A DNA stretch of 64,000 bases, taken from NCBI GenBank assembly GCA_903870365.1, contig CAIQCQ010000034.1:2665-66664 (forward strand), given 5' to 3'. Under the pieces are notes generated by a model. It did no database searches. It had not been told where the DNA came from and worked only from the letters and a program-made list of their open reading frames with translations. A program made the position numbers and the translations under genes. This stretch comes from an uncultured bacterium (GTDB lineage: Bacteria; Patescibacteriota; Minisyncoccia; Phycocordibacterales; DATDWN01). Shown here piece after piece: positions 19,227 through 59,367 of this stretch; within the stretch, counting starts at the first letter, position 1, and each line of letters begins with the position of its first letter.

Positions 19227-19850
19227 ATGCGGCCATTTCCCTATAAACAAGACTCTCGATTTGCCCTATTCAAAAAGCTCAATTCCCCTGCAAAAATACA
19301 GGATTTTCTCAATACCATCCCATTTAACTTTGAAACAAACGGCGACACCTGCAAATCCCCGCTTCGCACCCTTACAGAACACTCTGCCCAGTGCATGGAA
19401 GGTGCTATGCTTGCTGCTGCCATACTCTGGTACCACGGCGAGAGACCTTTGATCCTCGACCTTCGTACCAACAAACATGATTTTGATCATGTTGTCACTC
19501 TCTTTACACGCAATGGCCTGTGGGGTGCAATCAGCAAAACAAACCACGCCGTCCTCCGCTATCGTGATCCAGTCTATACCAGCGTACGTGAACTGGTCAT
19601 GTCATATTTTCATGAATACTTTACTGATGATGGTAAAAAAACGCTAGTGAGTTATTCTGCGCCATATAGTCTACTCTGTTTTAGTAATGACTGGCTGATC
19701 GCAGACGAAGACATCTGGTATATCCCCACTCAGCTCGATGATTCCAAACACATTCCCATCGCTCCACTATCAATTATGAAAAACCTCCGTCCCACTGACC
19801 AAGTCGAGAGAGAATATGGAAAGATTGTTGAATGGAAGAAAAAATCTTGA
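19227..19850 (+). CDS. hypothetical protein, possible transglutaminase-like Cys/His/Asp papain-fold
   Basis: 207 aa; SAQCMEGAMLAAAIL...DFDHVV arrangement. Confidence 0.3.
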   Translation: MRPFPYKQDSRFALFKKLNSPAKIQDFLNTIPFNFETNGDTCKSPLRTLTEHSAQCMEGAMLAAAILWYHGERPLILDLRTNKHDFDHVVTLFTRNGLWGAISKTNHAVLRYRDPVYTSVRELVMSYFHEYFTDDGKKTLVSYSAPYSLLCFSNDWLIADEDIWYIPTQLDDSKHIPIAPLSIMKNLRPTDQVEREYGKIVEWKKKS

Positions 19851-19856
19851 ATAAAC

Positions 19857-19881
19857 AAAAAACCGCCGAAGCGGTTTTTTA
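19857..19881. terminator. bidirectional rho-independent terminator
   Basis: AAAAAACCGC-cgaa-GCGGTTTTTT between convergent genes. Confidence 0.7.
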
Positions 19882-19920
19882 TTTATCAATAGGACATGTA
19901 TCCTACAGAAAAAATTACAA

Positions 19921-20178
19921 TTATGATAGATGCTTTGAAACAAGCTTAGTCATTTCAAACATGTTGACCACAGCCTTACCACCAAACACTTTCTTCAAAG
20001 GTTCATCTGCGACAATGTTTCGCTTGTTCTTTGGATCCTGGAGGTCCTTACCCTTGATGTATACCCAAAGCTTCTTTACAACCTCTGATCGAGGCATTGG
20101 ACCCTTTCCTACGACAACAGCCAAATCAGGACTGATGGTCATTGGCTTCATAAATGCAGAATTTACTTTTTTTTCCAT
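19921..20178 (-). CDS. SWIB/MDM2 domain protein
   Basis: ISPDLAVVVGKGPMPRSEVVKKLWVYIKGKDLQDPKNKRNIVADEPLKKVFGG...MFEMTKLVSKHL matches the SWIB fold consensus. Confidence 0.7.
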   Translation of the reverse strand: MEKKVNSAFMKPMTISPDLAVVVGKGPMPRSEVVKKLWVYIKGKDLQDPKNKRNIVADEPLKKVFGGKAVVNMFEMTKLVSKHLS

Positions 20179-20295
20179 AATATTTGTCGGACTTTCACAA
20201 AGTCCCTCTTAATTCTAATTATTATTAACTGTCCCACTACTATACCATAGGCTCTCCCTAGGGGGAAATACCTTGTCCACTGTACAGAATCACTC

Positions 20296-20388
20296 GGATT
20301 GTTTTTAAAAGAGCACGCATAAAACTTTGCTAAGTTTTTGCTCAGTCTCGCGCCGCCGCGCTTGCGAAGCCTCTTTTAAAAACAATCC
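20296..20388. repeat. 18-bp perfect inverted repeat (GGATTGTTTTTAAAAGAG / CTCTTTTAAAAACAATCC) around a 57-nt loop
   Basis: Read directly from the sequence; intergenic. Confidence 0.8.
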
Positions 20389-20425
20389 TCATTCCAGCTA
20401 AATAAAACAAAAAATACGAGTGATT

Positions 20426-21556
20426 TCACTTTACTTCGCTAACGAGTGTACCTATTGGTGTCCCCACCACCGTAAATCGTATAGTACCGATAATCTGTCC
20501 ACTTTCCGTCTCGACATTCACCCGCCACTTTCCTGGAGAGAGATCATTTCTCATGGAATATGTTCGGAAACCTCCATCGCGCCCACCAGCTACATACAGA
20601 GGCACGGTGCCTTTATCTAGCCATGCTTCTGCCACAGGATCATAGACTTGATAGTGATGTTCGATAGTCAAGTTGAGTAATGGTGGCGAAAAGATCGCAC
20701 TGTATATGAACACTGGTGTGCCCGTCGCCACATGTACGTCATCATACAAAATAAAAAAATTACGCCAAGTTGTCGGCTCCGCCGTGACCACATAGTTACC
20801 AGCACCATCCTTTTCGATTGAGTGATACACACCAGAATCTTTTAATGAAAGTGGTATTGGTGGAATAAGATTAAAAAAATATAACAAATTGAAAGTCAGA
20901 AACAACATACAAATAGACGCCAAAACCTTATTACGTTCATATCGCAGTTTTCGCTCGGTCACATATGACAATACAGCCAAAAACATAAATAACACAACCA
21001 AACTCAATAGACCGGATAATAGAAATATACTATAGCCGATTTTGTGCAATACCACTGGCACAAGGAACACAGAGAAAGCAAAAAGTGAGACATACAACAA
21101 CACAATTTGAAATGTCAGTCGGACATATTCTCGTTTCAATGATTCATTTGCCCAAAAAGCCAAACCGAGTATACAAAGGAACGGCCAGTTGGAGGCAAGT
21201 GACGCACTACGGAAATAAAAAACAAGATAGGTAGACAAAATACCTCCAAAGAAAAACTGCATCACATTAACCAGCCAAAAATGCAACGTGGCTGGATTCT
21301 GAACACGACTTCGAGCAAGTGTCCGCCGGCTCGCTTGATCTTCTGCCATCTTCACATCTTCACGATTGATCAAAATAATACAGACCGCCACGATGAGCAG
21401 GTGGGCTACAACCCAGACATTGTCCCACAAGGCATCGACACGCTGGAGGGTCACCGCATCAAAAATAAATCCACCGACAAGAGACAGCGACGAGATCGGT
21501 CGTTCAAACCGTCCGTAAAAATTCCGTATATGAGTAAAAATATTCCACTCGTTCAT
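20426..21556 (-). CDS. hypothetical polytopic membrane protein with a C-terminal extracytoplasmic domain
   Basis: 376 aa; about 8 TM helices then a ~150-aa soluble domain. Confidence 0.5.
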   Translation of the reverse strand: MNEWNIFTHIRNFYGRFERPISSLSLVGGFIFDAVTLQRVDALWDNVWVVAHLLIVAVCIILINREDVKMAEDQASRRTLARSRVQNPATLHFWLVNVMQFFFGGILSTYLVFYFRSASLASNWPFLCILGLAFWANESLKREYVRLTFQIVLLYVSLFAFSVFLVPVVLHKIGYSIFLLSGLLSLVVLFMFLAVLSYVTERKLRYERNKVLASICMLFLTFNLLYFFNLIPPIPLSLKDSGVYHSIEKDGAGNYVVTAEPTTWRNFFILYDDVHVATGTPVFIYSAIFSPPLLNLTIEHHYQVYDPVAEAWLDKGTVPLYVAGGRDGGFRTYSMRNDLSPGKWRVNVETESGQIIGTIRFTVVGTPIGTLVSEVK

Positions 21557-21583
21557 TGTGTATAGTATACAGGATTACAAAGA

Positions 21584-21997
21584 CTATTTTAATCTTTCAA
21601 TTATCGTCTGTTTAATTTTTTGTACGAGTACTTCTGAAATTTTAAAATCTGGGTTTGTTAGATAATTCTTGCCCCACCGATCATCCACAAAAGTGACGTT
21701 ATCAAATTCTATTGGTTTTGAATATCTTGGTATAATATGACCATGAAGATGATGCGTTATGTTACCCAAAAAAGCATAATTTAACATATCAGCTCCGAAT
21801 ATATCTATTAAATTCCCTTCAAGTTCACGTAAAATCTCAAATACTTCTATTTGTTCATCAGGGGTAGCGTCGGGTAAATCAAAAGCATCTTTCCTTTTAC
21901 ACCACACGTAGCATCGTCCAAGATAACTTTGATTCTCATGTAGGTACGTACTCCAATATACATATTCTTTTATTTTAAAATTCTGATATGGATCCAT
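21584..21997 (-). CDS. HIT family protein (histidine triad)
   Basis: CYVWCK (CxxC) and THHLHGHIIPRY, cf. HIT HxHxHxx. Confidence 0.65.
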   Translation of the reverse strand: MDPYQNFKIKEYVYWSTYLHENQSYLGRCYVWCKRKDAFDLPDATPDEQIEVFEILRELEGNLIDIFGADMLNYAFLGNITHHLHGHIIPRYSKPIEFDNVTFVDDRWGKNYLTNPDFKISEVLVQKIKQTIIERLK

Positions 21998-22506
21998 TAT
22001 TTTTGATATTTATCCAACAACCACGTAGACGTATATTTTTTATACTTTTTTCTTACCACACCAGGCATATTACCGTATGCTCCAATCACTTTTCTACACG
22101 AGCCTGTCCCACAACTACAAGCCATACGCCAATACGGATGATCCTCTGTCATCTCATAGTCCCAGGTTATTTCTTCACCTAGCAGTATATTCCGCATGGC
22201 CACAATTTGAAATAAATTTTGTATGCCACAGTTTGGTTCACATGAATGATTGATCAGTCGAGCTATGCCAGTAGAGTCCCGCCATTTTTTCTCTTCAAAT
22301 TGAATACAGTGATTGTATAAATCTTCATTCCATTTGGTCGAACGAGAACTGTATACCCGGCCATCAAAAGCCGCAATAACCTCCCCTTTCTTGATCATAT
22401 CAATAGCAAATATCCCCTTGCCATGGTGCGTAGTCTTACGTATTTCTACTTTTGTATTATCCATATAAACAAGTGTAGCATACCGAATATCTAACAAAAT
22501 TGACAA
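21997..22506 (-). CDS. SET domain protein (putative protein-lysine methyltransferase)
   Basis: RLINHSCEPNC signature; Y.EL; post-SET CSCGTGSC. Confidence 0.8.
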   Translation of the reverse strand: MSILLDIRYATLVYMDNTKVEIRKTTHHGKGIFAIDMIKKGEVIAAFDGRVYSSRSTKWNEDLYNHCIQFEEKKWRDSTGIARLINHSCEPNCGIQNLFQIVAMRNILLGEEITWDYEMTEDHPYWRMACSCGTGSCRKVIGAYGNMPGVVRKKYKKYTSTWLLDKYQK

Positions 22507-22531
22507 CTATCAACAAAAAAGTGAGCAGACA

Positions 22532-22813
22532 TTATGACATCTGCCCACTCACAACCTCTCTGAGAATCCGTTGAAACTCTTCAAATGAAATCTCGCCAAA
22601 AGTATAACATTCATCGCCTTCTTCATCGTGACATACACAATCCGGATCACAATCACAGTCAGTCTTCCAACGTATATACTGTCCTTCTGGAGTCAGCAAT
22701 ACATGGGGACCCCAGTGTTCCGGCAAAATACACTCTCCCATGTAGTCATCATCTCTGTGACCAATGATATCCTCTCTGCGCGGTGGAATCGTCAAGCACA
22801 TTCTCATACACAC
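22532..22813 (-). CDS. hypothetical Cys-rich small protein
   Basis: 93 aa (CDCDPDCVCHDEEGDEC). Confidence 0.3.
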   Translation of the reverse strand: MCMRMCLTIPPRREDIIGHRDDDYMGECILPEHWGPHVLLTPEGQYIRWKTDCDCDPDCVCHDEEGDECYTFGEISFEEFQRILREVVSGQMS

Positions 22814-23054
22814 CTCCTTCCCATAAAATACGGTCTTTTGTATAAAAAGTAAACTGTCAAATCTCCACCTTTATCTTTGGCCATTTTTCTAACCACTTCT
22901 TTTGTGTCATTCGCTCTCTTACTCTCTCAATCCCGTCTGGAAACTGTGGGCTTGGTCTGACGATCATACCCACAAGATCATCAATTCCATATGGAGCAAC
23001 AAATCGCAAACTTCCATTTTCAAGTCGGACACCAACTGCTGTTGCGGTTTCTGG

Positions 23055-23441
23055 CTAATGAGCAATAGCATCCTGAGTTGATGTATACGGAAGTATACCA
23101 TTCCATATATGAGCATAAAATTCATTTACCACTTCCCATTCAATACCAGTTTCCTTTTTTAATTTTTCTGACAATTCATCATCTGCTTTTTCATCATTAC
23201 CATCTGGATCAAAATAAACCAAATCAACATCACTTCCTCTATGCAGATTATTTGTGTACCCAGAGATATGGTTCCATACCTTATTCCGTACAAATCCCGC
23301 ACCAATCAACCAATCTTTTAACTGTAAACTTTCTGCGGTACGTAAAATATCCATCATCCATTTATCTTGTTCTATTACATTGAGAATGTCTTGTTCGATC
23401 ATAATTCCAATAATTTCTTTCGTATCTCTTTCCTCAACCAT
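23055..23441 (-). CDS. nucleotidyltransferase-fold protein; an in-frame TAG is followed by 68 more sense codons (possible pseudogene or readthrough)
   Basis: GAGFVRNKVW...GSDVDLVYFD NTase motif; the same frame continues PETATAVGVRLENGSL... down to ~22852. Confidence 0.5.
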   Translation of the reverse strand: MVEERDTKEIIGIMIEQDILNVIEQDKWMMDILRTAESLQLKDWLIGAGFVRNKVWNHISGYTNNLHRGSDVDLVYFDPDGNDEKADDELSEKLKKETGIEWEVVNEFYAHIWNGILPYTSTQDAIAH

Positions 23442-24325
23442 AGTTTATCTGTTACCCCAACATCACCATCAAAACTAATAGTAATAATCTTTGATAATAA
23501 CTCTTTCACCTTTTTACTTTCCGTATACATATAATTTTTCTTTTCAGAAATAGACGGTATACTCAAAAACCAATCCGGGTGCCCAAATTTTTCTAGTGCA
23601 GCTTGAGCTTCCACCTTATGTTTATCCAGAAATGTATTCGCACTCCACAGCTCCAACTGCCCCATAACAACAGGGAAAGGAACTGTTTCCAGGTTTAGTG
23701 TTTTAGTATCGCTCGTTATCGCATGACCTATATCTGTATATATACTTTGTTCAACCTCTTCAAAATATTGCTCGGTCCAATTTAGCGGCAAATCTATATA
23801 TTTTTTAAGTTCTTCAAAAGCAGTAACATCCCTATCTGTAGTAACTGAAGCTCCAAAATTAAGAGTGTTTGAAAGGATGGCAATAGTAAGAAGATTCGCA
23901 CTCAGTTTTGATACCTTATCTGCAAAACCTCTCTTTTTATATTCTTCCCAAATCAAAGTGGCACAAGCGCCAACAAGTTCCACATGAGCATGTTCACTCA
24001 ACTTTTCCTTCCAAAAATCTTGAAAACCAAAACGATGATCGTACACTTCTACAACATGTTCCATTTGTATAAATTTTGAAATATAAGTCAGTTCAGATAC
24101 ATCAACAATTACAATATCACTTTCAATATCTGTCGGCTGTGTTACATAGTTTATATTCCATGAGCGAATAGTAGATGTGATACTACTATTAAACACACCT
24201 GGTAACACAATCTCATTCTTTTTATTCTCTAGAGTAAGCAACTCAGAATATGCAACAGCGCACGCCAAAACATCAATATCTGTAAATGCTTCTCCTGCTG
24301 TAATAACGGTAGTTTTCATAATCAA
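23399..24325 (-). CDS. DHH-family phosphoesterase homolog (family II pyrophosphatase PpaC-like) with degenerate catalytic motifs
   Basis: Collinear similarity to PpaC, but HQNPDTD is GEAFTDID, DHN is DVS, DHH is DHR. Confidence 0.55.
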   Translation of the reverse strand: MIMKTTVITAGEAFTDIDVLACAVAYSELLTLENKKNEIVLPGVFNSSITSTIRSWNINYVTQPTDIESDIVIVDVSELTYISKFIQMEHVVEVYDHRFGFQDFWKEKLSEHAHVELVGACATLIWEEYKKRGFADKVSKLSANLLTIAILSNTLNFGASVTTDRDVTAFEELKKYIDLPLNWTEQYFEEVEQSIYTDIGHAITSDTKTLNLETVPFPVVMGQLELWSANTFLDKHKVEAQAALEKFGHPDWFLSIPSISEKKNYMYTESKKVKELLSKIITISFDGDVGVTDKLWLRKEIRKKLLEL

Positions 24326-35559: not shown

Positions 35560-37818
35560 ATGAAAAAATTACTAATAGTAGAAAGTCCAGCCAAAGCCAA
35601 AACCATTTCAAAATATTTGAGTGGTGAAAAGGACACATACACCGTCGTCGCATCTGTCGGACACGTACGTGATCTTCCAAAGTCAAACAAAAAAGCCATC
35701 GATGTGGCTGCTGGTTTTGTGCCTCACTATGAAATTTCCAAAGGTAAAGAAAAAGTAATTGATGAGATATCTGCCCTGGCAAAAAAATCTGATGAAGTCC
35801 TGCTGGCGACCGACCCCGACCGTGAAGGTGAAGCCATCGCGTGGCATATCGCTGAGCTCTTGAAGAGCTCAGCGAAGTCAAAAGTCAAAAGTCAAAAGTC
35901 GAAAGAAAATACAGGACCAAAGATACAGAGAGTGACATATCATGAGATCACCAAAGAAGCCATCGAGGAAGCACTCAAACACCCTCGAGCCATTGACCAA
36001 AACTTGCGCAAAGCCCAAGAAGCTCGGCGTGTGCTCGACCGACTGGTGGGCTACGACCTCTCTGGTATCATTTGGAAAAAAGTGCGCTACGGTCTGTCTG
36101 CTGGCCGTGTCCAGTCCCCTGCGTTGCGTATCATCATGGAACGCGAGCGAGAAATACGTGCCTTCACCTCACACGCCTTTTGGGTCATTACTGCTGACGT
36201 GGCCAACAAAGACACATTCAAATTTGTCGTCACCTGCGAAGAAGAACCGACTGATCAGAAAAAAGTTGATGCCATCCTAGCCACAGGGAAAAAAGAAAAC
36301 TGGACCGTGACTGATATCAAAGCAACTGAAGTCAAGAAAACACCTCGTGCACCGTTTATCACTTCGACACTCCAGCAGACTGCATCGACACGACTTGGCT
36401 TTGCACCATCACGTACCATGGGTATTGCGCAAAAGTTATACGAAGCTGGACACATTACCTACATGCGTACTGATTCGACTACCCTTTCCAAAACTGCCCT
36501 TGCAGAAATCTCTACCGTCATCGAAAAAAAATTTGGTAAAGAATATCTCCAGCTCCATACTTTTACGACCAAATCAAAAAATGCACAGGAAGCTCATGAA
36601 GCCATCCGTCCAACACATGTGACACTGACAAGCGCCGGTAAAAATGATGATGAGAAAAAACTCTATGACTTGATCTGGGCTCGCACTGTGGCATCACAAA
36701 TGAAAGACGCAAATACACTGCGTACAAAAATTCTCGTCCAAGTTGGTGACGGCAAGATCAGTCCTGATTTTTCTGTTAACGGTTCACGAGTATTGTTTGA
36801 CGGCTGGATGGCCTCTGACCCGATGTCACGCACAGACGATATTGAAGTCCCAAAAGTCGAACTCAACGAGAAATTAAATTTTCATGATATCCATGCGCTC
36901 GAAAAGCAAACTGAACCACCGGGTCGCTACAGTGAAGCAGGTTTGATCAAAGAACTTGAAAAACGTGGCATTGGCCGACCGAGTACATATGCATCCATCC
37001 TCCGTACCATCGAAGAGCGTGGATATGTGGACAAGGTCAACAAAGCTCTGGTGCCGACAGACACTGGTGATGTAGTCTCGTCGTTCCTCGAAGACAACTT
37101 CGCTGACTACATTAGTGATACCTTTACTGCCGAAATGGAAGACAAGCTCGACCTCATTGCTGAGGGTAAACAAGAATACGAAAAAATCCTCAAAGATTTC
37201 TATACACCGTTTAGCAAAGAGGTAAAAATTAAAGACAAGCTCGACAAAGCCACCAACATGGGTGTAGCTGATCCAAAATTTACATGTCCGATCTGTGGCG
37301 AATCCATGATCATCAAACTTTCTCGTTCTGGGAAATTTCTTTCTTGTTCAACATACCCAGACTGTGATGGAGCACTCGATATGGAAGGTCGCGAGATCAA
37401 GAAAAATGAACCGATTGGTATTGATCCGACAACAGGTCTGCAGATTTTTATGATGGACGGTAAATATGGTCCATATGTTCAACTTGGCGAACGAGCAAAA
37501 GGTAAGGGTTCAAAGAAAGCGGTTAAACCACGCATGGCTGGCGTACCAAAAACAAAAGATCCAAACACCGTGACACTGACTGATGCCCTTCTCTACTTGT
37601 CATTACCAAAAGTCCTCGGTGTACACCCAGTCACTGGCCTGCCCATCACTGCCAACATTGGTATGTTTGGTCCATATGTCGTTCATGATAAAGATTTCAG
37701 ATCGCTCAAAGTGGATGATGTATATACGATCGAGCTTCCTCGGGCACTAGAAATCTTTGCCGAAGAAAAAAAAGTAGGACGACGTGGTCGATTTGCAAAA
37801 AAGAAGAAAGAAGAGTAA
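35560..37818 (+). CDS. topA: DNA topoisomerase I
   Basis: TOPRIM, catalytic Tyr region, C4 zinc ribbon CPICGESM; a hexanucleotide SSR at 35877-35900 encodes KSKVKSQKSK. Confidence 0.9.
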   Translation: MKKLLIVESPAKAKTISKYLSGEKDTYTVVASVGHVRDLPKSNKKAIDVAAGFVPHYEISKGKEKVIDEISALAKKSDEVLLATDPDREGEAIAWHIAELLKSSAKSKVKSQKSKENTGPKIQRVTYHEITKEAIEEALKHPRAIDQNLRKAQEARRVLDRLVGYDLSGIIWKKVRYGLSAGRVQSPALRIIMEREREIRAFTSHAFWVITADVANKDTFKFVVTCEEEPTDQKKVDAILATGKKENWTVTDIKATEVKKTPRAPFITSTLQQTASTRLGFAPSRTMGIAQKLYEAGHITYMRTDSTTLSKTALAEISTVIEKKFGKEYLQLHTFTTKSKNAQEAHEAIRPTHVTLTSAGKNDDEKKLYDLIWARTVASQMKDANTLRTKILVQVGDGKISPDFSVNGSRVLFDGWMASDPMSRTDDIEVPKVELNEKLNFHDIHALEKQTEPPGRYSEAGLIKELEKRGIGRPSTYASILRTIEERGYVDKVNKALVPTDTGDVVSSFLEDNFADYISDTFTAEMEDKLDLIAEGKQEYEKILKDFYTPFSKEVKIKDKLDKATNMGVADPKFTCPICGESMIIKLSRSGKFLSCSTYPDCDGALDMEGREIKKNEPIGIDPTTGLQIFMMDGKYGPYVQLGERAKGKGSKKAVKPRMAGVPKTKDPNTVTLTDALLYLSLPKVLGVHPVTGLPITANIGMFGPYVVHDKDFRSLKVDDVYTIELPRALEIFAEEKKVGRRGRFAKKKKEE

Positions 37819-38895: not shown

Positions 38896-39945
38896 CTACA
38901 GTGAGAAATTTTTTATTGAGTAAAGTTCCTCATCATCCTCCGTATTATCCGCCTTTTTGATTTCCTCTTCTGAACGATCATCGAGTATAGTCACGGGATC
39001 AGACTCTTGCTGAACAATGATCTCTTCAGATTTTATGTCCGACCCATTTGTAATTTCTAATTCGTTATTCTTAATTCCCTCTCCATTCAAGCTTCCAACT
39101 TCAAGATTCGAGCTTCGATCGTTCTTGAGTTTACTCAACAGCGATTTGAGGTCTTCCTCCGAGAAAAAGGCAATAGTCACCTTGCCACCTGGTGCTTCAT
39201 GTTTCTTTTCAATAACCACACGAGTGCCGAGGCTCTCCGTCAGTCGGTCCTCGATCTCTCGTGTCTGCATGTCGAGCATGTCGCCCTTAATACGTGCCCG
39301 GTCCAATGCAATACGTCGTGAGATCAGTTCTGCCTCGCGCACGGTCATCTTGCGGAGTATGATTTCCTTGAGCAAGGTCATCTGCTCTTCTGGTCGGTCG
39401 ATCAACATGAGCAGTGGTCGAGTGTGACCTTCACTGATCTTGCCCGCTTTCAAAGCATCAATAATTTCTGCATTCAAATTTAGTACACGAATACTGTTGG
39501 ACACATATTCACGACTCTTGCCGACTTTTTCTGCAATAGTGATGTGTTTAAAACCAAATTCATCGGCCAGACGTTTAAAGGCAATGGCTCGATCCACCAC
39601 GTTGAGATCCTCACGCTGAAGGTTTTCAATGATAGCCAACTCCAGTTTCATCTGGTCAGTCTCATCACCATCTTTGATCAAGACTGGCACGACAGATAGA
39701 CCAGCAAGTTTTGAAGCACGCAGCCGACGTTCACCCGCAATGAGTTCGTACTCTACCACCAGACCATCATCTTTTTGTACTTCTTTACGAGTCACTACCA
39801 GGGCCTGCAAGACACCATATTGACGGATCGAATCCGCCAAGCTCTGGAGCTGAGCTGGGTCAAAATCCCGTCGTGGCTGAAACGGGTTTGGTTTGATCTT
39901 TTCAACCTCTATCCAAAATATTGAATCTTTGTAGAATTGGCTCAC
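38896..39945 (-). CDS. parB: chromosome partitioning protein ParB/Spo0J
   Basis: ParB box (GERRLRASKLAGL), HTH, C-terminal dimerisation plus acidic tail. Confidence 0.85.
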   Translation of the reverse strand: MSQFYKDSIFWIEVEKIKPNPFQPRRDFDPAQLQSLADSIRQYGVLQALVVTRKEVQKDDGLVVEYELIAGERRLRASKLAGLSVVPVLIKDGDETDQMKLELAIIENLQREDLNVVDRAIAFKRLADEFGFKHITIAEKVGKSREYVSNSIRVLNLNAEIIDALKAGKISEGHTRPLLMLIDRPEEQMTLLKEIILRKMTVREAELISRRIALDRARIKGDMLDMQTREIEDRLTESLGTRVVIEKKHEAPGGKVTIAFFSEEDLKSLLSKLKNDRSSNLEVGSLNGEGIKNNELEITNGSDIKSEEIIVQQESDPVTILDDRSEEEIKKADNTEDDEELYSIKNFSL

Positions 39946-52938: not shown

Positions 52939-54444
52939 ATGCCCGACACTAGCCACACTACAACAAAACGTCCTCCTGTCGTCGCCATCATGGGTCATAT
53001 TGATCATGGTAAATCAACACTCCTCTCATATATTCGTAAAAGCGCCCTCGCGTTAAACGAAGCAGGTGGTATCACTCAGCATATTTCTGCGTATGAAGTC
53101 GAACATCCTACAGCAGACGGCGTAGCGAAGATCACCTTCATCGACACACCCGGACATGCCGCTTTTTCTGGTCACCGCAACCGTGGAGCATCTATCGCTG
53201 ATGTATGTATCCTCGTGGTCTCTGCCGAAGATGGTGTCAAACCTCAAACTGTCGAAGCCCTCAATTCAATAAAAAAAAGCAACACTCCGTATATTGTCGC
53301 CATTACAAAGACAGACAAGCCTGATGCCAATATTGAGCGCACAAAACAATCACTGGCTGAACACGACATCTTTGTTGAAGGCTACGGTGGCGATATCCCT
53401 ATGGTAGCTGTTTCTGGAAAAACCGGCGCTGGTATTCCCGAACTTCTTGATATGATCCTCCTAGTGGCTGATTTGGAAAACCTCATGGGAGATCGCGGAG
53501 CTCTTGCCTCTGGTATGATTATTGAAAATAATCTCGATATCCGTAAAGGTATCTCTGCAACCTGTATCATCACTAATGGAAGTTTGGTCAAGGGTAATTT
53601 TGTTATTTCTGAACAAGCCATCACCCCTGTCCGTATGGTAGAAAATTGGAAAGGCCAACCAATACAAGACGCCACTTTTTCCATGCCGATAAAACTCATT
53701 GGTTGGGATAGTCTACCAACAGTTGGAAGTACCTTTAAAACATTTGAAACAAAAAAAGAAGCGGAAGAATATATAAAGCAAATGGAAAGTGGAAAGTCGA
53801 AAGTGGAAAGTCGAGAAGATACACAGAAAAATACAGACGTTAAAGATTTTCCACTCGTCATCAAAGCAGATACTGGTGGTAGTTTGGAGGCACTGACTCA
53901 GGAGATCATGAAGTCAGAAATGGAACGCATCCGACCACATATTGTTTTTTCTGGTATCGGCGCGGTATCTGAAAACGATATTCGTATGGCCAAAGGTAAA
54001 GACAATGCTATCGTTATCGGTTTTCATGTCAAAGTGGATCCACAAGCAAAAACTCTGGCTGAACGAGATGGTGTGACCATACAACATTTTGATGTCATTT
54101 ATACTATGTCAGAATGGCTCAAAGAAACACTCCTCGCACAAACACCAAAAAGAGAAGTTGAGGAACAAACTGGCGAAGCAAAAGTACTCAAAATGTTCAG
54201 TAAAGTCAAAGACAAACAAGTCATTGGCTGTCGTATGGAAACAGGTAGTATGCACGTCGGCGACATTGTTAAAATCATGCGTCGAGATAGTGAGATTGGT
54301 AGTGGTAAAGTACGCGAACTACAATCACAGAAATTAAAAATCTCGAGTGTCGAAGAAGGTAAAGAATTTGGCACCTTGGTCGAAGCAAAAATAGAAATCG
54401 CTCCTGGTGACAAACTACAGGTATTTACTCTTACTCAAAAATAA
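52939..54444 (+). CDS. infB: translation initiation factor IF-2 (short form)
   Basis: GTPase G1-G4 (GHIDHGKST, DTPGH, TKTD) plus C-terminal domains. Confidence 0.9.
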   Translation: MPDTSHTTTKRPPVVAIMGHIDHGKSTLLSYIRKSALALNEAGGITQHISAYEVEHPTADGVAKITFIDTPGHAAFSGHRNRGASIADVCILVVSAEDGVKPQTVEALNSIKKSNTPYIVAITKTDKPDANIERTKQSLAEHDIFVEGYGGDIPMVAVSGKTGAGIPELLDMILLVADLENLMGDRGALASGMIIENNLDIRKGISATCIITNGSLVKGNFVISEQAITPVRMVENWKGQPIQDATFSMPIKLIGWDSLPTVGSTFKTFETKKEAEEYIKQMESGKSKVESREDTQKNTDVKDFPLVIKADTGGSLEALTQEIMKSEMERIRPHIVFSGIGAVSENDIRMAKGKDNAIVIGFHVKVDPQAKTLAERDGVTIQHFDVIYTMSEWLKETLLAQTPKREVEEQTGEAKVLKMFSKVKDKQVIGCRMETGSMHVGDIVKIMRRDSEIGSGKVRELQSQKLKISSVEEGKEFGTLVEAKIEIAPGDKLQVFTLTQK

Positions 54445-54461
54445 TACAAATAACACATACC

Positions 54462-54791
54462 ATGAGCCTACGAGACGAACGTATAGAAGAACAGTTACGA
54501 GGATTGGCAGGACAGTTTTTGTCGTTGCATGGTAATACCTCATCCTTGCTAACTGTCACCAAAGTTGAGATGTCAAAAGACGCGAAAAATGCTATGATCT
54601 TTTTCACAGTATTCCCGCAAAGTTTCGAGAAAACTGCGTTGCAATTTGCCAAGCGAAAGCGAAGTGAATTTAAACATTTCATCAAAGATAACGTGAGTTT
54701 TGGCAAAATCCCTTTCATTGATTTTGCTATTGATTTGGGTGAGAAAAACCGTCAACGTATTGATGAGATATCAAACATAACCGAAGAATAA
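54462..54791 (+). CDS. rbfA: ribosome-binding factor A
   Basis: 109 aa downstream of infB; KH-like RbfA pattern. Confidence 0.8.
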   Translation: MSLRDERIEEQLRGLAGQFLSLHGNTSSLLTVTKVEMSKDAKNAMIFFTVFPQSFEKTALQFAKRKRSEFKHFIKDNVSFGKIPFIDFAIDLGEKNRQRIDEISNITEE

Positions 54792-54794
54792 TAC

Positions 54795-54869
54795 GACCTG
54801 GTGGCCAAGTGGTAAGGCGAAGCTCTGCAAAAGCTTTATACGGCGGTTCGATTCCGCCCCAGGTCTCCA
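54795..54869 (+). tRNA. tRNA-Cys(GCA), CCA encoded
   Basis: Hand-folded; anticodon loop CTGCAAA; T-loop TTCGATT. Confidence 0.8.
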
Positions 54870-54895
54870 AGAAAAAGTTTTACTTTTTCTCACAT

Positions 54896-54977
54896 GCCTG
54901 GGTGGTGGAATTGGTTTACACGCACGACTTAAAATCGTGTTCCGCAAGGAATATGGGTTCGACTCCCATCCCAGGCA
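54896..54977 (+). tRNA. tRNA-Leu(TAA)
   Basis: Hand-folded; anticodon loop CTTAAAA; long variable arm. Confidence 0.75.
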
Positions 54978-55030
54978 CTAGAAAATCACAAAGTGATTTT
55001 TAGCTGGGAAACAAAACCAATATCTTGGTT

Positions 55031-55098
55031 TTGTGTTGGGAATCGAACAGATTGTCGGTCTACGCTCACACCAGTGAGTGTCGACAATCTGGTGCCCA
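55031..55098 (+). repeat. Repeat-D copy (10-bp stem CAGATTGTCG / CGACAATCTG)
   Basis: Preceded by an A6CC..GGT6 hairpin; lies between two perfect 26-bp copies of the tRNA-Leu 3' end (54961-54986 and 55136-55161). Confidence 0.8.
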
Positions 55099-55169
55099 GA
55101 AATATTCAAGCGACGGCGAGAACATTTCGAGGGAGACTCCCATCCCAGGCACTAGAAAATACTTTCACA

Positions 55170-55201
55170 AAAAATTTCCATACGTGTATGGAAATTTTTT
55201 G
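55170..55201. terminator. bidirectional terminator hairpin
   Basis: AAAAAATTTCCATAC-g-GTATGGAAATTTTTT. Confidence 0.7.
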
Positions 55202-55207
55202 TATCTG

Positions 55208-55280
55208 TGCGCCCACCAGGGATCGAACCTGGGACCTTGTCCTTAAGAGGGACCTGCTCTACCAGCTGAGCTATAGGCGC
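55208..55280 (-). tRNA. tRNA-Lys(CTT)
   Basis: Hand-folded; anticodon loop CTCTTAA; T-loop TTCGATC. Confidence 0.75.
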
Positions 55281-55487
55281 ATATTAATTTATTCTCACAT
55301 ACCGAGCCTCTACTGTATACCGACCAAAACAGTCCCAAACCAGACAAAAAGTATTCTACCATTTTATTTATGAAAACCAAAGTACACCCCCAGAATTTTC
55401 TACATAAAAAATTATTGATAATCCCCTTTTCATCATTTTCAGAGTTGATATAATTGGTATACACTATTTGTCTTAGTTATAGAAAAA

Positions 55488-56138
55488 ATGAGTAAAAGAA
55501 AATCAAAAATAAAAATCATCTGGACAACAAATTTTGCATACGCAATAGGGCTAATTACTACAGATGGTAACCTATCCAATGATGGTAGACATATTCTCTA
55601 TACAACAAAAGATGAACAACTAGCTATTACATACAAAAAATGCCTAGATATCACAAATAAAATTGGTAAAAAATCAAGAGGATTTGGAAAAGAAAAAAAG
55701 TATTACGTAATACAGTTTGGTGATATAAATTTTTATGAATTTCTTATTACTATTGGAATAACACCCCGCAAATCAAAAACCCTTATACAAATACAAATAC
55801 CAAATAAATATTTTGCGGATTTTTTACGAGGATGTATTGATGGTGACGGTACTATTTCAATATCAGATCATCCAGAGTCACAATACAAACAATTAAAAAT
55901 TCGTTTATCTTCTGCAAGCCCGTTATTTCTTCAATGGATTGGCGAAAAAATAGCTCTTTTGATCAAAACAAAAGGTGGTCATATTTATACAGATAAAACA
56001 AAATCCGTCTCAACACTTTCTTATGCAAAAGCAGATGGTGGAAAAATCCTGAAATGTATGTATTATAAGAAGGATCTTCCTTGTTTAAAAAGAAAAGAGA
56101 AGATTGCTAAAAAATGGGCGAGTGGCGCAATTGGCTAG
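55488..56138 (+). CDS. LAGLIDADG homing endonuclease (two-motif, free-standing)
   Basis: FAYAIGLITTDGNL and FLRGCIDGDGTISI; the last 7 codons and the stop overlap tRNA-Leu(TAG). Confidence 0.8.
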   Translation: MSKRKSKIKIIWTTNFAYAIGLITTDGNLSNDGRHILYTTKDEQLAITYKKCLDITNKIGKKSRGFGKEKKYYVIQFGDINFYEFLITIGITPRKSKTLIQIQIPNKYFADFLRGCIDGDGTISISDHPESQYKQLKIRLSSASPLFLQWIGEKIALLIKTKGGHIYTDKTKSVSTLSYAKADGGKILKCMYYKKDLPCLKRKEKIAKKWASGAIG

Positions 56139-56198
56139 ACGCGCTAGTCTTAGGAACTAGTGGAGCAATCCGTGGGGGTTCAAGTCCCCCCTCGCCCA
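56116..56198 (+). tRNA. tRNA-Leu(TAG)
   Basis: Hand-folded; anticodon loop CTTAGGA; long variable arm; T-loop TTCAAGT. Confidence 0.75.
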
Positions 56199-57820
56199 CC
56201 CTTAGAGACTTTGAGGTCTTCGAGATCATCAAAGGGTGAATTAAGTGTTGTATTTACTACATTTTTTCCTTGAATGGTAAAGTTCAAGAAGATTTTGCGT
56301 ATAAAATAGTCCAATTCTTTCATATCTCTGCTTTTAGCTATATAACTAGCGGTATTATCTAGTAGTTCAAGGAACTCAGCGTAAGTCAGTATATTGACCT
56401 TGCCCTTAGCGATAAGTTTTTGAGCTTTTTGTATCTCCCCATTGATCGTAACTATTTCTGCCTTAGACTTCTGTAAATCTAATTTATACTCATCCTTTAT
56501 TTCCTTTGTCTCATCACTAATAAGCATATCCTTTATCTTGACGATCTTCTCATTTATTTTTCTTTCTTTAGCTTGCAAAGAAAGTACTTGTGTTTTTGCT
56601 TTAGAAATCCTCTGATCAGAAACTATTTTCATTTCTTTGGTGTAGTGATCGTAACTCTTTTCGGATGAAAAAGGCTTTTGATCCAAATACTTACAAATAT
56701 AATCAATCACTACTTTTGCTCTGACTGATTTCCCATACATATCACAGTCATCAGTTTCGCATCTATAATAAAAATAGTTTGTTGTACCCTCTTTCGTTTT
56801 CTTTGCAGTAATACCTGCACTCATAGGCTCACCACACTCTGCACACAAAACCATTCCTCTCAGCAGATCAGCTTTCACACCACCAGTTTTCCTATACTTT
56901 TTTGTGATAGCTATAAGTTGTTTGTCCTTAGAAAGTTTATTGATTGTCATAAACTCTGGAACGGTAATCATGGCTGAAAATCCATAATGTTCAATCAAAT
57001 TGATCACATCATTTTTCCCATAGTTGAGAATACCTGTATAGATAGGGTCTTTCATAAACTTCTCTACCCTTTGCTTGGTCATTTTTATAAATCTTGGCGT
57101 ATGATCCTTATGCCAGGTATGGTAGCCATTACTATTTAGAAAATCAGCTATTTCTGACATAATAACGCCACGCAATCTCATCTTAAATGCTTCTTTGATG
57201 AGAAGAAAATTATTGCCATCTGGCTGCAAACGCTGAAGTGCATCTTTGTAATATCCATGCTTTGCTTTATTGATATACTTGCCCTCACCCACACTTCTCT
57301 TATTACCTCTGCTCACATTATCGCTGAGCTTGTCAGAGTATTCTTTTGACAACACAAAGGTAATGCCTAAAAGCATTTTTCCACTCGTGTCATTTTGAAA
57401 AGTAAAACTGACAAACTTCAAATCTCTGATAATCTGCTTATCAACAAGATCAATAATTTCTCCCGCCTCTTTCATATTTCTAGCAAGACGATCAGGATGC
57501 CATGCTATCACCCCACCGTATTTACCCTTTTTAAGGTCATTGAGTAACTGTCTAAACTTAGGTCTCGTATCAGGCTCTTTTGCCGACTCAGCTTCTACAA
57601 TAATATCTTGCTTCTTTACAGTAATATCATTCCTCTCTGCAAACTCAGTACACTCTGCTATTTGGTCCTGCAAAGAGCGAACTTGTTTATCACTTTCATC
57701 AGTGGATTTTCTAACATAAATTGCATAGACGCAGTCTTCAGGGACAAAAACACTATCACTGCTTTTTAGCTGTTGTAGTGCATTTTTTAGTTCTTCAGGA
57801 GTTGTAATCGGATTAAGCAT
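56180..57820 (-). CDS. large serine recombinase (integrase)
   Basis: N-terminal resolvase domain (AIYVRKSTDESDKQVRSLQDQ) plus a large C-terminal recombinase / zinc-ribbon / coiled-coil region; 546 aa. Confidence 0.85.
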   Translation of the reverse strand: MLNPITTPEELKNALQQLKSSDSVFVPEDCVYAIYVRKSTDESDKQVRSLQDQIAECTEFAERNDITVKKQDIIVEAESAKEPDTRPKFRQLLNDLKKGKYGGVIAWHPDRLARNMKEAGEIIDLVDKQIIRDLKFVSFTFQNDTSGKMLLGITFVLSKEYSDKLSDNVSRGNKRSVGEGKYINKAKHGYYKDALQRLQPDGNNFLLIKEAFKMRLRGVIMSEIADFLNSNGYHTWHKDHTPRFIKMTKQRVEKFMKDPIYTGILNYGKNDVINLIEHYGFSAMITVPEFMTINKLSKDKQLIAITKKYRKTGGVKADLLRGMVLCAECGEPMSAGITAKKTKEGTTNYFYYRCETDDCDMYGKSVRAKVVIDYICKYLDQKPFSSEKSYDHYTKEMKIVSDQRISKAKTQVLSLQAKERKINEKIVKIKDMLISDETKEIKDEYKLDLQKSKAEIVTINGEIQKAQKLIAKGKVNILTYAEFLELLDNTASYIAKSRDMKELDYFIRKIFLNFTIQGKNVVNTTLNSPFDDLEDLKVSKGGRGGT

Positions 57821-57971
57821 AGTTGGCAGTATTTTATCATTTTTGCTTACTACCGCCTAAATACACTGGATTATGAAAAATGGAGTGGTTTTGAGACAAA
57901 CCATAGTATTTACTGGTTACGAGCTATAGAGAGCAGGATCCTTTGAATAGGAGCTGGTGTGGGTCTATATA

Positions 57972-58742
57972 TCAATCAGACCAGCCTAAACGCTCGTTAT
58001 TTTTAGGACGAAACATTTTGAACTTTATTCGGTATTCAACTTCTTTAGATATAAATACGGGATCGCCACCACCATATAAAGAAATCTTTGGCTTTCCATT
58101 TTTCTCATAAAAATCTTTATCGTGTTTCTCTATATCAAAAATAGTAGCTTCATATGCAAGTCGATGCTCGTATGAGAAACCTCTGTCTTTCAATTCTTTC
58201 TCGATATGATCAGGCCACTTGATAATGAGGTTATCTTCAGAGTCATCGAAACGTAGACCGAGTTCAACAAGAAACTGTACGATGCTATTCAGAGGAAAGA
58301 TCACGAGCCAATCTTCTTTCTTTCCAATCGTATCAAGTCCACCGATATATTGATCAAAACAATTATTACGGATGCTGTCTTCGGTAATAGCGACTGCATA
58401 TTTATTCTCTAGGACTCTATCAACAGTAGGTCCCATTTTAGAGCCAAACATATAACCACAGTGCATAAACTCGTCTGTTGGAAAAGTTCGTTCTATGTCT
58501 CCCGATGCTATCCTTTGAAAACGACTAGTTAGACCACTTGCTGAGTCATAATATTCAGTGAACTCGTAATATGTTCCGTATATTCCATGTCTGCCGTTTT
58601 TCTCATATTCTGCGAACATTTCTTTCAACTCCTGTGAAATTTCTGACCCAGCAATTTTCTCAGCCAATCTTTTCCAGTCGACAAACGGCGTAACATCTAA
58701 TTTGTATCCGAATTGTTTTGGGAAGATTTGTTTTCCGAACAT
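57972..58742 (-). CDS. hypothetical protein (island cargo)
   Basis: 256-aa ORF, no recognised motifs. Confidence 0.5.
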   Translation of the reverse strand: MFGKQIFPKQFGYKLDVTPFVDWKRLAEKIAGSEISQELKEMFAEYEKNGRHGIYGTYYEFTEYYDSASGLTSRFQRIASGDIERTFPTDEFMHCGYMFGSKMGPTVDRVLENKYAVAITEDSIRNNCFDQYIGGLDTIGKKEDWLVIFPLNSIVQFLVELGLRFDDSEDNLIIKWPDHIEKELKDRGFSYEHRLAYEATIFDIEKHDKDFYEKNGKPKISLYGGGDPVFISKEVEYRIKFKMFRPKNNERLGWSD

Positions 58743-58772
58743 AGTATTTTTATATAAAGATATTATAGCTTT

Positions 58773-59132: not shown

Positions 59133-59367
59133 GTGTTTTCAGTTATCTAGTAAGCCACATGGAAACTTTTTGATACAAAAAGCCCACCACATGGGTGAGG
59201 GCCGAAGCCCTCCATACCAGTTTCCCGATATGACCTGTAACAGCACCCCATATGATGGGTTTTTTATCTGTTACAGGATTTTTCACCATGCCAGTGATTG
59301 CTCAGTGGTTTAGGCTACTTTTGCTTATTCAGTTGTATACTTCTATCATATCACTTTTCCAATAAAA

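Follow-up and report, generated by a model that had tools for sequence, protein, structure and literature searches.

Two small genes in the genome of an uncultured bacterium, one encoding a SWIB/MDM2-domain protein and the other a SET-domain methyltransferase, lie 1.8 kb apart, which raises the question of whether they belong to a chromatin-like system or are neighbors by chance. We addressed this question in the stretch of 64 kb of DNA that contains both genes, referred to here as the window. Judged by the names of its protein matches, the genome is of the Paceibacteria type (Parcubacteria/CPR), LOOT RNA having been considered as a taxonomic marker and set aside; the cluster-mates and matches of the SWIB, SET, and ParB proteins carry the names Zambryskibacteria, Taylorbacteria, Paceibacterota, Minisyncoccia, or Parcubacteria, and the other genes of the window have housekeeping functions (ClpB, TopA, SerRS, IF-2, Mur ligase, and ParB). 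The original prediction had portrayed them as a cluster of rare, eukaryote-like chromatin genes within a minimal genome, a framing that does not hold up. Instead, and with a probability of about 0.6 for the explanation as a whole, we consider them to be two independent, ordinary genes, of which one would encode a nucleoid factor or adaptor and the other an enzyme for protein-lysine methylation.

The SWIB gene (positions 19921 to 20178, minus strand) encodes a stand-alone SWIB/MDM2-domain protein of 85 amino acids, and the fold first proposed for it was borne out by both profile search and structural modeling. The protein matches Pfam profile PF02201 over its entire length (profile positions 1 to 74 of 74) with an E value of 2.9e-30 and a score of 104.3 bits (cutoff, 25). 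Its AF2 model (pLDDT, 87.8) superimposes on the Arabidopsis SWIB/MDM2 structure 1v31 with a TM score of 0.80 and an rmsd of 1.3 Å, with BAF60 (BAF60a, 1uhr) and MDM2 as the next structural matches. In the PDB, yeast UAF30 gives the best sequence match, through its SWIB domain (E value, 3e-15); in NCBIfam, the matches are to SWIB modules that form the C termini of fusion proteins with topoisomerase I or III. The protein is calculated to be basic, with a pI of 10.0, a net charge of +9, and 15 lysines; an alignment with 23 homologs features 48 invariant columns, including seven invariant lysines. An antisense shadow open reading frame (ORF) is present opposite the gene.

The second gene encodes a stand-alone SET and post-SET methyltransferase, which matches PF00856 over profile positions 1 to 104 of 105 (E value, 3.1e-14; 53.7 bits; cutoff, 22.4). 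A Foldseek search with its AF2 model (pLDDT, 93; pTM, 0.86) returned ASH1L, MLL1, SETD2, and NSD1 with E values of about 1e-10, a probability of 1.00, and TM scores of 0.6 to 0.72. The reading frame was initially taken to span 169 codons (21997 to 22506, with a TTG start at 22506), which is almost certainly too long. We place the coding sequence at 21997 to 22464 (minus strand; ATG at 22464; 155 amino acids), because the gene call for the identical sequence in the database (P0001) has 155 amino acids, all 30 aligned homologs start at MDN, and the TTG sits within a promoter-like TTGTCA-18-TATGCT element upstream of SET (22477 to 22506, minus strand; found by promoter scan and direct reading), immediately 3' of the terminator that ends the preceding gene.

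The SET domain, its NHSCEPNC signature, and the post-SET cysteine cluster were all confirmed by the profile match and the alignment of the 30 homologs. Invariant among these (in the 155-amino-acid numbering) are G15 of the G15xG motif, H52, N72-H-S-C-x-P-N78, and W101-D-Y103, as well as C75 of NHSC and the first two cysteines of the post-SET motif CxCx4C (C116 and C118), while the third, C123, is kept in at least 90%. The cysteines of this cluster are putative zinc ligands. The GxG, NHSCxPN, and DY motifs align with their MLL1 counterparts and the post-SET cysteines with CNCGAKKC of MLL1, the segments ARxINHSCEPNC and CxCGxxxCRK being almost the same in both proteins. As read from these motifs, every catalytic and SAM-binding element appears intact. 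The family also has features of its own, namely, an invariant tryptophan at the position of the first tyrosine of the MLL1 TYDY motif and a two-helix C-terminal tail of about 30 amino acids.

The predicted terminators, the promoter-like site, and an overlap between SET and its downstream neighbor place the SWIB and SET genes in separate predicted transcription units. SWIB is monocistronic, with an upstream region and a terminator not shared with any other gene, the latter being an intrinsic-terminator-like hairpin 3' of the gene (AAAAAACCGCttcgGCGGTTTTTT; 19850 to 19887, minus strand) that was identified by terminator scan and direct sequence reading. On the other side of the locus, the same two approaches found a terminator-like hairpin with a 14-bp stem and a T-run (22519 to 22550, minus strand), which ends an upstream gene for a 93-amino-acid Cys/Asp-rich protein and parts it from the SET transcription unit. 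SET is the first gene of a species-specific operon, followed by genes for a HIT-like and a DUF2914 protein. The start codon of the HIT gene (21584 to 21997, minus strand; 137 amino acids) overlaps the SET stop codon (TAATG), an arrangement seen only in contigs of the same species (L001 to L003) and in none of the 80 related loci. The DUF2914 gene (20426 to 21556, minus strand), which encodes a membrane protein of 376 amino acids with a C-terminal DUF2914 domain (PF11141; E value, 6.8e-12), starts 27 nucleotides downstream of HIT; this gap is devoid of a terminator-like site, and the SET operon of this genome probably ends with the DUF2914 gene.

Of the neighbors that had been named, the HIT protein stood, with a weak and partial match above threshold to PF01230 (E value, 9.6e-5; 23.4 bits; cutoff, 21.5; profile positions 33 to 97 of 98) and its HxHxHxx motif present as HLHGHII in the translation, although in none of the 80 SET loci does a HIT gene adjoin SET. 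The nucleotidyltransferase did not stand as an intact gene: it consists of two ORFs, matching positions 2 to 95 and 114 to 159 of the Pfam profile, and is therefore frameshifted or a pseudogene. Paralogs of SWIB or SET were not found within the window, nor were HU-like proteins as substrate candidates, the latter being a weak negative given the approximate HU queries.

The region between the DUF2914 stop codon and the SWIB promoter region holds a long hairpin with an 18-nucleotide perfect inverted repeat (20296 to 20388, minus strand). Its predicted minimum free energy is -43.2 kcal/mol (z score, -3.4), and none of 200 shuffled sequences folds as well. The repeat arms occur nowhere else in the window. 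The hairpin, which has no match in Rfam, may mark where the SET-HIT-DUF2914 transcript ends or may be a structured element in its own right. Closer to SWIB, scanning and sequence reading revealed a 7-bp hairpin in the 5' leader (20189 to 20205, minus strand), between an AAGAGGG motif and the ATG, that is not clearly conserved in relatives. A leader or regulatory RNA conserved in front of SWIB was considered and rejected, as the alignment of four upstream regions was poor and no Rfam family was found between positions 19700 and 22900, apart from a chance-level rsmX match (E value, 0.17).

Both domains had been described as rare in bacteria, but they are common in this lineage. SWIB is found in at least 8,000 clusters (at 90% identity) of the Paceibacteria-type (Parcubacteria/CPR) group, all 8,000 scored candidates being positive, with matches named Parcubacteria, Paceibacterota, Taylorbacteria, Zambryskibacteria, and Minisyncoccota. 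The best 120 of these at least 8,000 matches share 85 to 94% identity with the window protein, whereas ParB (38896 to 39945), the single protein used as a conservation benchmark, and SET are only 60 to 75% identical in taxa of the same names. The benchmark gene had been expected to encode RecA and turned out to encode ParB, a less stringent standard; an alternative baseline, drawn from genes common to SWIB loci, was dropped on account of paralog-level matches and the SWIB antisense shadow ORF. At the nucleotide level, synonymous sites of SWIB are saturated, with a median pS of 0.79 and a pS of 0.80 even against a homolog whose protein is 96% identical; pN is 0.11, giving a dN/dS of about 0.07 or less, with dS saturated. 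Given this saturation, we attribute the high protein identity to purifying selection over long periods rather than to a recent transfer. SWIB is among the most constrained proteins of the lineage, and the purifying selection acting on it is unusually strong, as is characteristic of a core component of the cell. It also provides a caution, in that high identity between taxa should not be taken as a sign of horizontal transfer.

The SET family comprises 588 clusters and occurs in at least 592 species-representative genomes. It is a small family common to CPR, DPANN archaea, Bdellovibrionales, and several large-genome phyla, among others: its members in Verrucomicrobiales, Hyphomonadaceae, Actinomycetes, and Chitinophagaceae reside on contigs that are 1.25 to 6.5 Mb long and thus too large for CPR. 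In a neighbor-joining tree, rooted at the midpoint, calculated without support values, and used only qualitatively, CPR and DPANN sequences are intermixed, while those of Bdellovibrionales form a coherent clade. This suggests that the Bdellovibrionales proteins were inherited vertically, and an older transfer of the family between phyla is likely.

The proximity of the two genes was evaluated against a background of unrelated single-copy window genes, which recurred in 0 to 3 of 80 loci. Of the 80 SET loci, 1 had a SWIB gene within 10 kb, and of the 80 SWIB loci, 3 (L105, L124, and L143) had a SET-like gene within the same distance. Two of the latter, L105 and L124, which share one gene arrangement, carry a different SET subfamily directly beside SWIB and may stem from one evolutionary event. 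Taken alone, these three loci might be viewed as a signal of linkage, a candidate that we rejected once all window genes were counted alike. We also searched the 80 SET loci for 12 window neighbors by tblastn and clustered their flanking ORFs de novo; neither SET-HIT-DUF2914 nor SET-SWIB synteny was conserved, and no recurrent partner emerged, the commonest neighbor being an ABC transporter of a generic family in 9 loci. The closest relatives of SET lie beside AlaRS or IF-2/RbfA genes with no SWIB nearby, and the SWIB relatives inspected have no SET nearby. Their co-occurrence, which had been regarded as unusual, is thus at background level, and the closeness of SWIB and SET is coincidental rather than a conserved module.

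These observations bear directly on the possibility that the two proteins form a functional bacterial chromatin pair, in which SET would methylate SWIB, or a nucleoid protein read or recruited by SWIB, and the proximity of their genes would reflect this link. The short distance, the three SWIB loci with a nearby SET-like gene, L105 and L124 in particular, and the lysine content of SWIB would all fit such a pair, as would the co-occurrence of SET and SWIB genes in Chlamydiae that was noted by Aravind, Abhiman, and Iyer in 2011, as cited in PMC6426960. However, the separate transcription units, the background-level counts, the lack of the partner gene near the closest relatives on either side, and the potential single origin of L105 and L124 make it unlikely. 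A functional link between the two proteins might instead act in trans. It is tempting to speculate further that in Paceibacteria-type CPR bacteria SWIB is essential and a principal architect of the nucleoid and that SET places lysine-methyl marks on it or on a nucleoid partner. The two would then constitute a bacterial chromatin system of writer and substrate, akin to the forerunners of that of eukaryotes, and the adjacency of SWIB to two different SET subfamilies (in the window and in L105 and L124) would be its weak imprint; we consider this improbable. Horizontal acquisition had been raised in the original prediction; a recent event, from a eukaryote or within CPR, would account for the eukaryote-like nature of the genes and for the high SWIB identity between taxa. 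It would agree with the patchy, cross-domain distribution of SET, with the intermixing of CPR and DPANN sequences, and with a published survey that counts SWIB/MDM2 genes among those transferred horizontally in Patescibacteria (PMC12455944). Yet eukaryotic SET proteins are just 31 to 35% identical to that of the window, compared with 45 to 75% for hundreds of prokaryotic homologs, and the synonymous divergence of SWIB argues against a recent event even at 96% protein identity. The GC content across 18 to 24 kb (0.38 to 0.40) is in line with that of most of the window (about 0.40 to 0.45), no mobile-element genes were found within about 30 kb, and close family members are rare on the viral contigs searched (one close match for SET and five matches at 55 to 61% for SWIB), so that we view a recent transfer as quite unlikely.

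Alternatively, SWIB and/or SET could be host-interaction effectors, delivered by an episymbiont to modify the chromatin or proteins of its host in the manner of chlamydial NUE or Legionella RomA. The occurrence of the SET family in CPR, DPANN archaea, and predatory Bdellovibrionales is suggestive in this respect, CPR are mostly episymbionts (PMC11665869), and the SWIB protein of Waddlia has been reported in host nuclei (PMC6426960). Nonetheless, we judge this role, which had also been proposed originally, to be very unlikely. Both N termini are free of a signal sequence or hydrophobic stretch (type III signals not being recognizable from sequence), the neighborhood is free of secretion-system genes, the same SET family is present in the large-genome groups named above, and the Bdellovibrionales clade, in a tree without support values, points to vertical inheritance. 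Moreover, the constraint on SWIB across the class is the opposite of typical effector evolution. The SET protein might also act on a small molecule instead of protein lysines, for instance converting methionine to S-methylmethionine, as does BurB, an example of a SET-fold enzyme with free methionine as its methyl acceptor (PMC12542666). BurB is indeed among the top structural matches (9l4v and 9l4t; E value, 3e-10; TM score, 0.66) and is matched at the profile level (E value, 1.5e-12). The match to the KMT2/MLL SET profile is stronger (E value, 1.8e-18) and runs through the post-SET region, where, as in the NHSCEPNC segment, the sequence is nearly that of MLL1; no biosynthetic gene recurs beside members of the family, and some relatives are located among translation genes. 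Small-molecule methylation therefore seems to us a poor bet.

Under the preferred explanation of two independent genes, SWIB would most likely act within the cell, either as an abundant factor associated with the nucleoid or as an adaptor that serves DNA enzymes, because the SWIB protein of Waddlia associates with DNA throughout the genome, SWIB-4 is a plastid-nucleoid protein, and SWIB modules are fused to topoisomerases I and III in other bacteria. We infer the association with DNA or the nucleoid from these analogies, and an adaptor role is equally possible, the SWIB/MDM2 fold being classically a protein-protein interaction module (PMC4758235). SET, in turn, would most likely transfer methyl groups from SAM to one or more lysines of an endogenous, probably basic, protein, because Go1-SET methylates MC1-alpha in Methanosarcina and a chlamydial SET protein methylates Hc1. 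We infer this class of substrate from these precedents, and any relationship between SET and SWIB would be conjectural. Given their small size, the two proteins are expected to be readily expressed, which makes these assignments directly testable.

How do the two proteins compare with known systems? Like the window protein, the chlamydial proteins Wcw_0377 (Waddlia) and CT460 (C. trachomatis) are small and consist of a SWIB/MDM2 domain alone. Wcw_0377, which binds heparin and yields 1,920 ChIP-seq peaks genome-wide (PMC6426960), is the best functional analogy. The window protein differs in that it belongs to a CPR lineage and not to Chlamydiae and is not accompanied by a SWIB-topoisomerase fusion in the window. 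Most CPR hosts, unlike those of Chlamydiae, offer no nucleus. The Chlamydia-type set of SET, SWIB, and topoisomerase-SWIB proteins, which includes the secreted SET protein NUE, features a topoisomerase I-SWIB fusion that is absent from the 64-kb window, where TopA (35560 to 37818) has Toprim, Topoisom_bac, zinc-ribbon, and C-terminal repeat domains but no SWIB domain. The eukaryotic SWIB domains of UAF30, BAF60/SMARCD, At5g14170, and SWIB-4 share the fold (TM scores, 0.75 to 0.81), yet they are embedded in larger proteins or complexes, in contrast to the stand-alone window protein. SWIB-4, which binds DNA in chloroplast nucleoids (Melonek 2012, as cited in PMC4758235), has an additional H1-like motif. 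Identity to the BAF60 and Arabidopsis structures is only about 25 to 28%, UAF30 being the stronger match by sequence.

For SET, the best matches in sequence, profile, and fold are the SET and post-SET domains of the KMT2/MLL and ASH1L/SET2 classes, with which it has the GxG, NHSCEPNC, DY, and CxCx4C motifs in common. It differs from both in its overall identity (only 26 to 35%), in lacking SET-associated accessory domains, in its short SET-I insert and C-terminal tail, and in the absence of a histone substrate in the organism, and from MLL1 also in the invariant tryptophan. BurB, the SET-domain methionine S-methyltransferase of Burkholderia, has a similarly compact fold and size but matches less well than KMT2; it works in a secondary-metabolite and DMSP pathway (PMC12542666), a context that was absent around the SET family in the 80 loci with clustered flanking ORFs. 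A mechanistic precedent, by role rather than by sequence relationship, may be provided by Go1-SET and by cpnSET of C. pneumoniae (acting on Hc1/Hc2), small stand-alone prokaryotic SET proteins that methylate DNA-associated proteins of their own cell (PMC3980110), although the findings on Hc1 in Chlamydiae are under dispute (PMC6426960). Bacterial SET proteins also occur in free-living species (PMC3980110). Set beside these systems, the SWIB and SET genes of the window are ordinary members of known families.

The two ORFs that the original prediction had read as a SWIB/MDM2 domain protein and a SET-domain methyltransferase were both found on the minus strand where it had placed them, and profile searches with both returned scores above the Pfam cut-offs. 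The SWIB protein (85 aa; 19921-20178, minus strand) holds a complete SWIB/MDM2 domain, matching PF02201 over profile positions 1 to 74 of 74 (E = 2.9e-30; 104 bits, cut-off 25). Among solved structures, its closest match by sequence is to the SWIB domain of yeast UAF30 (E = 3e-15), and an AlphaFold2 model computed with 23 homologs as input (pLDDT 87.8) superimposes on the Arabidopsis SWIB/MDM2 domain 1v31 with a TM score of 0.80 and an rmsd of 1.3 Å, followed by BAF60 subunits and MDM2. The full-length match and the superposition bear out the SWIB/MDM2 call. The SET ORF in turn matches PF00856 (E = 3.1e-14; 53.7 bits, cut-off 22.4). An alignment with 30 members of the family shows no variation in the GxG motif, in NHSCxPN, or in the Tyr of WDY, and C75, C116, C118, and C123, the expected post-SET zinc cluster, are invariant or nearly so. 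The top structural matches of the SET model (pLDDT 93, pTM 0.86) are ASH1L, MLL1, SETD2, and NSD1 (E of about 1e-10, TM 0.6 to 0.72), so that the proposed SET signature and post-SET Cys cluster hold at the levels of profile, alignment, and fold. Together, the evidence for the two proteins therefore confirms the initial observation; every domain-family membership feature that could be tested was present in both, and homologs of both are already correctly labelled in public annotation. What did not stand is the proposed SET length of 169 aa, counted from TTG 22506, which is too long. A public gene call of identical sequence (P0001) has 155 aa, the equivalent MDN starts every SET homolog in the 30-member alignment, and TTG 22506 sits within a promoter-like TTGTCA-18-TATGCT directly past the terminator that closes the preceding gene. 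We corrected the CDS to 21997-22464 (minus strand, 155 aa), in which all catalytic features are intact.

SWIB is strongly basic (pI 10.0, 15 Lys among 85 residues, net charge +9), and 48 columns are invariant in its alignment of 23 homologs, seven Lys among them. Its conservation is exceptional: the median identity to homologs is 83 to 84%, ParB and SET drop to 60 to 70% inside the same named taxa, and other window proteins share 25 to 68% identity with their homologs in the SWIB loci. Compared with 72 homologs, synonymous differences are saturated (median pS 0.79) and pN is 0.11, which sets dN/dS at about 0.07 or lower. Since pS is saturated and reaches 0.80 even for a homolog that is 96% identical at the protein level, with third codon positions just 52% identical, the high identity does not stem from recent horizontal spread. 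A published study counts the SWIB genes of Patescibacteria among those that were horizontally transferred (PMC12455944); given the saturated pS and the low dN/dS, this placement may partly mirror extreme constraint. As for function, precedents suggest an association with DNA or the nucleoid: in Waddlia, the stand-alone SWIB is a heparin binder whose ChIP-seq signal covers the entire chromosome (PMC6426960), and plant SWIB-4 is described, in a statement relayed via PMC4758235, as a DNA-binding core protein of plastid nucleoids. Because the SWIB fold classically binds proteins, an adaptor role, e.g., for topoisomerase, is equally possible; the nearest curated bacterial profiles are SWIB modules fused C-terminally to topoisomerases I and III. 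One lead left by this analysis is that, across Parcubacteria, purifying selection acts intensely on this stand-alone and functionally uncharacterised SWIB.

Both proteins had been considered rare in bacteria and seen mostly in Chlamydiae and in a small number of host-associated lineages, a view that is outdated for the present lineage, where our searches found both families to be common. The window encodes common housekeeping proteins (ClpB, topoisomerase I, SerRS, IF-2, a Mur ligase, ExoVII, and ParB), together with eight tRNAs and one LOOT RNA. Named homologs of SWIB, SET, and ParB belong overwhelmingly to Zambryskibacteria, Taylorbacteria, Paceibacterota, Minisyncoccia, and the "Parcubacteria group," and the window genome is of the Paceibacteria-type CPR/Patescibacteria. 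Exact protein matches are encoded on an 81.9-kb contig found in NCBI, ENA, and Logan. The SWIB search gave at least 8,000 significant matches (8,000 of 8,000 scored candidates), the best 120 clusters being 85 to 94% identical, and the 90%-identity cluster that contains the window protein has 202 members from several candidate phyla. The SET family comprises 588 clusters at 58 to 75% identity and occurs in at least 592 species-representative genomes; an exhaustive comparison with 1.84 billion 50%-identity representatives returned 7,155 matches at E ≤ 1e-3, 41 of them at E ≤ 1e-30. Beyond CPR, it is present in DPANN archaea and Bdellovibrionales (contigs up to 411 kb), as well as in Verrucomicrobiales (1.25 Mb), Hyphomonadaceae (3.2 Mb), Actinomycetes (a 3.5-Mb chromosome), and Chitinophagaceae (6.5 Mb). 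The SET family is not restricted to CPR; contigs this large (1.25 to 6.5 Mb) cannot be CPR genomes. The literature points the same way: free-living bacteria and archaea are known to carry SET genes (PMC3980110), and SWIB/MDM2 genes of Patescibacteria are mentioned in passing, their function left open (PMC12455944).

Eukaryotic SETs are just 31 to 35% identical to the window protein, and the GC content around SWIB and SET is unremarkable, which lends no support to a recent gain from a eukaryote. In a rough NJ tree, the window SET groups with other CPR sequences, adjoining a coherent Bdellovibrionales clade; elsewhere in the tree CPR and DPANN sequences are mixed, and older inter-phylum transfer of the SET family is therefore plausible. 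The suggestion that the two proteins act as host-interaction factors or effectors found no backing either and is unlikely, given that neither SWIB nor SET shows a signal sequence or secretion context, that the SET family is present in large free-living genomes, and that SWIB evolves extremely slowly. By analogy with Go1-SET, which acts on MC1-alpha, and with chlamydial SET, which acts on Hc1 (PMC3980110), the window enzyme would most likely methylate one or more lysines on an endogenous protein; a BurB-like activity on a small molecule is a genuine rival. This widespread small SET enzyme is the other lead.

The SET stop codon overlaps the start (TAATG) of a HIT-like gene (137 aa; PF01230, E = 9.6e-5, HLHGH motif), a gene for a DUF2914-domain membrane protein (376 aa) follows 27 bases past it, and upstream of SET a terminator with a 14-bp stem ends a gene for a 93-aa Cys/Asp-rich protein; SET, HIT, and DUF2914 therefore look like one operon. 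SWIB is separated from DUF2914 by a 247-bp spacer that holds a long hairpin (20296-20388, minus strand; MFE −43 kcal/mol, z −3.4), formed by an 18-nt perfect inverted repeat, GGATTGTTTTTAAAAGAG ... CTCTTTTAAAAACAATCC, around a GC-rich core of about 57 nt. The repeat occurs once in the window, and the hairpin has neither an Rfam match nor a U-tract after it. With this spacer and a textbook terminator 3' of SWIB (19850-19887), SWIB and SET thus belong to different transcription units; in relatives, SWIB is again flanked by intergenic spacers, with varied neighbours. Among 80 related loci collected from the SET side, each with flanks of at most 10 kb, HIT was adjacent to SET in none and SWIB lay within 10 kb in one, and de novo clustering of all flanking ORFs revealed no recurrent SET partner. 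The closest SET relatives (66 to 70% identity) are either flanked by an S41 peptidase and AlaRS or follow IF-2 and RbfA. From the SWIB side, where the flanks of 80 metagenomic loci add up to 806 kb, three loci had a SET-like gene within 10 kb. Every window gene was counted likewise in these 80 loci as a background, in which unrelated single-copy genes reached 0 to 3 loci. Against this background the clustering proposed at the outset did not hold up, none of the features tested for a conserved cluster of SET and SWIB was found, and the 1.8-kb spacing in the window is best read as chance. We consider it quite improbable that SET and SWIB form a bacterial chromatin pair of writer and substrate.

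In two of the SWIB loci, both on CPR metagenome contigs, the SET-like gene stands directly beside SWIB (L105, 10311-10769, and L124, 11132-11554, both minus strand). It belongs to a different SET subfamily, 31 to 36% identical to the window SET (140 to 152 aa; NHSCRPN, YDY, CRCxKC), whose L105 member matches Pfam SET at E = 2.9e-22 and has a Lys-rich C-terminal tail. We rejected this adjacency as a signal, as it falls within the background of 0 to 3 of 80, and the two cases may represent a single evolutionary event. In both, the gene lies divergent from a homolog of orf207, a 207-aa window protein (19227-19850, plus strand) without a Pfam family. The latter has a faint match (E = 0.21) to Vasohibin, a transglutaminase-like Cys protease, and a conserved Cys...DH arrangement. 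Its homologs lie near SWIB in 3 of 80 loci (L105, 10815-11438; L124, 11634-12263; L161, 15041-15625), a count likewise within background. An antisense ORF over SWIB (126 aa; 19832-20212, plus strand) seems conserved in 80 of 80 SWIB loci only because the SWIB frame that it shadows is so highly conserved; methods that pick ORFs by length are easily misled by it.

The nucleotidyltransferase named as a further neighbour does match NTP_transf_6, but the match is split across two minus-strand ORFs (23055-23441 and 22857-23009, covering Pfam profile positions 2 to 95 and 114 to 159); either the gene is frameshifted or decaying into a pseudogene, or the assembly is in error here. The ORF at 23055-23441 shares some sequence with the 3' end of the DHH/PPase-like gene that precedes it (308 aa; 23399-24325, minus strand), which has no Pfam match and matches the NCBIfam Mn-dependent inorganic pyrophosphatase (E = 5e-18) far under the equivalog cut-off (65.6 versus 283 bits), and so encodes a divergent DHH-family phosphoesterase. 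The 93-aa protein (22532-22813, minus strand), which matches no family and whose gene has its own terminator, is acidic (pI 4.4) with many Cys, Asp, and His residues (DCDCDPDCVCHDEEGDEC) and may bind metal. At about 54000-62000, GC is depressed (0.35 to 0.38 versus about 0.42 elsewhere), and this stretch may be an integrated mobile element. A large serine recombinase with Resolvase, Recombinase, and Zn-ribbon domains (56180-57820, minus strand) abuts and slightly overlaps a tRNA-Leu (56115-56201, plus strand), and a LOOT RNA (59197-59316, minus strand; Rfam RF03000, 90 bits, gathering score 46) lies in this low-GC part, as does a 431-aa ORF without a family match.

Genomic co-occurrence of SET and SWIB has been noted before for Chlamydiae (Aravind, Abhiman and Iyer 2011, cited in PMC6426960). 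In the features tested, the window does not match a Chlamydia-type set of SET, SWIB, and TopA-SWIB: the chlamydial fusion is the NCBIfam match of the stand-alone SWIB, whereas the window TopA (35560-37818, plus strand) carries Toprim, Topoisom_bac, Zn-ribbon, and C-terminal repeat domains and lacks this hallmark SWIB module. SET itself most closely resembles the KMT2/MLL enzymes (profile E = 1.8e-18), and the ARxINHSCEPNC and CxCGxxxCRK of MLL1 are almost identical in it. The family has three features of its own, namely, a short SET-I insert, an invariant Trp where MLL1 has the first Tyr of TYDY, which we take to be the Phe/Tyr "switch" position governing product specificity, and, at the C-terminus, a conserved tail of some 30 residues for which two helices are predicted.
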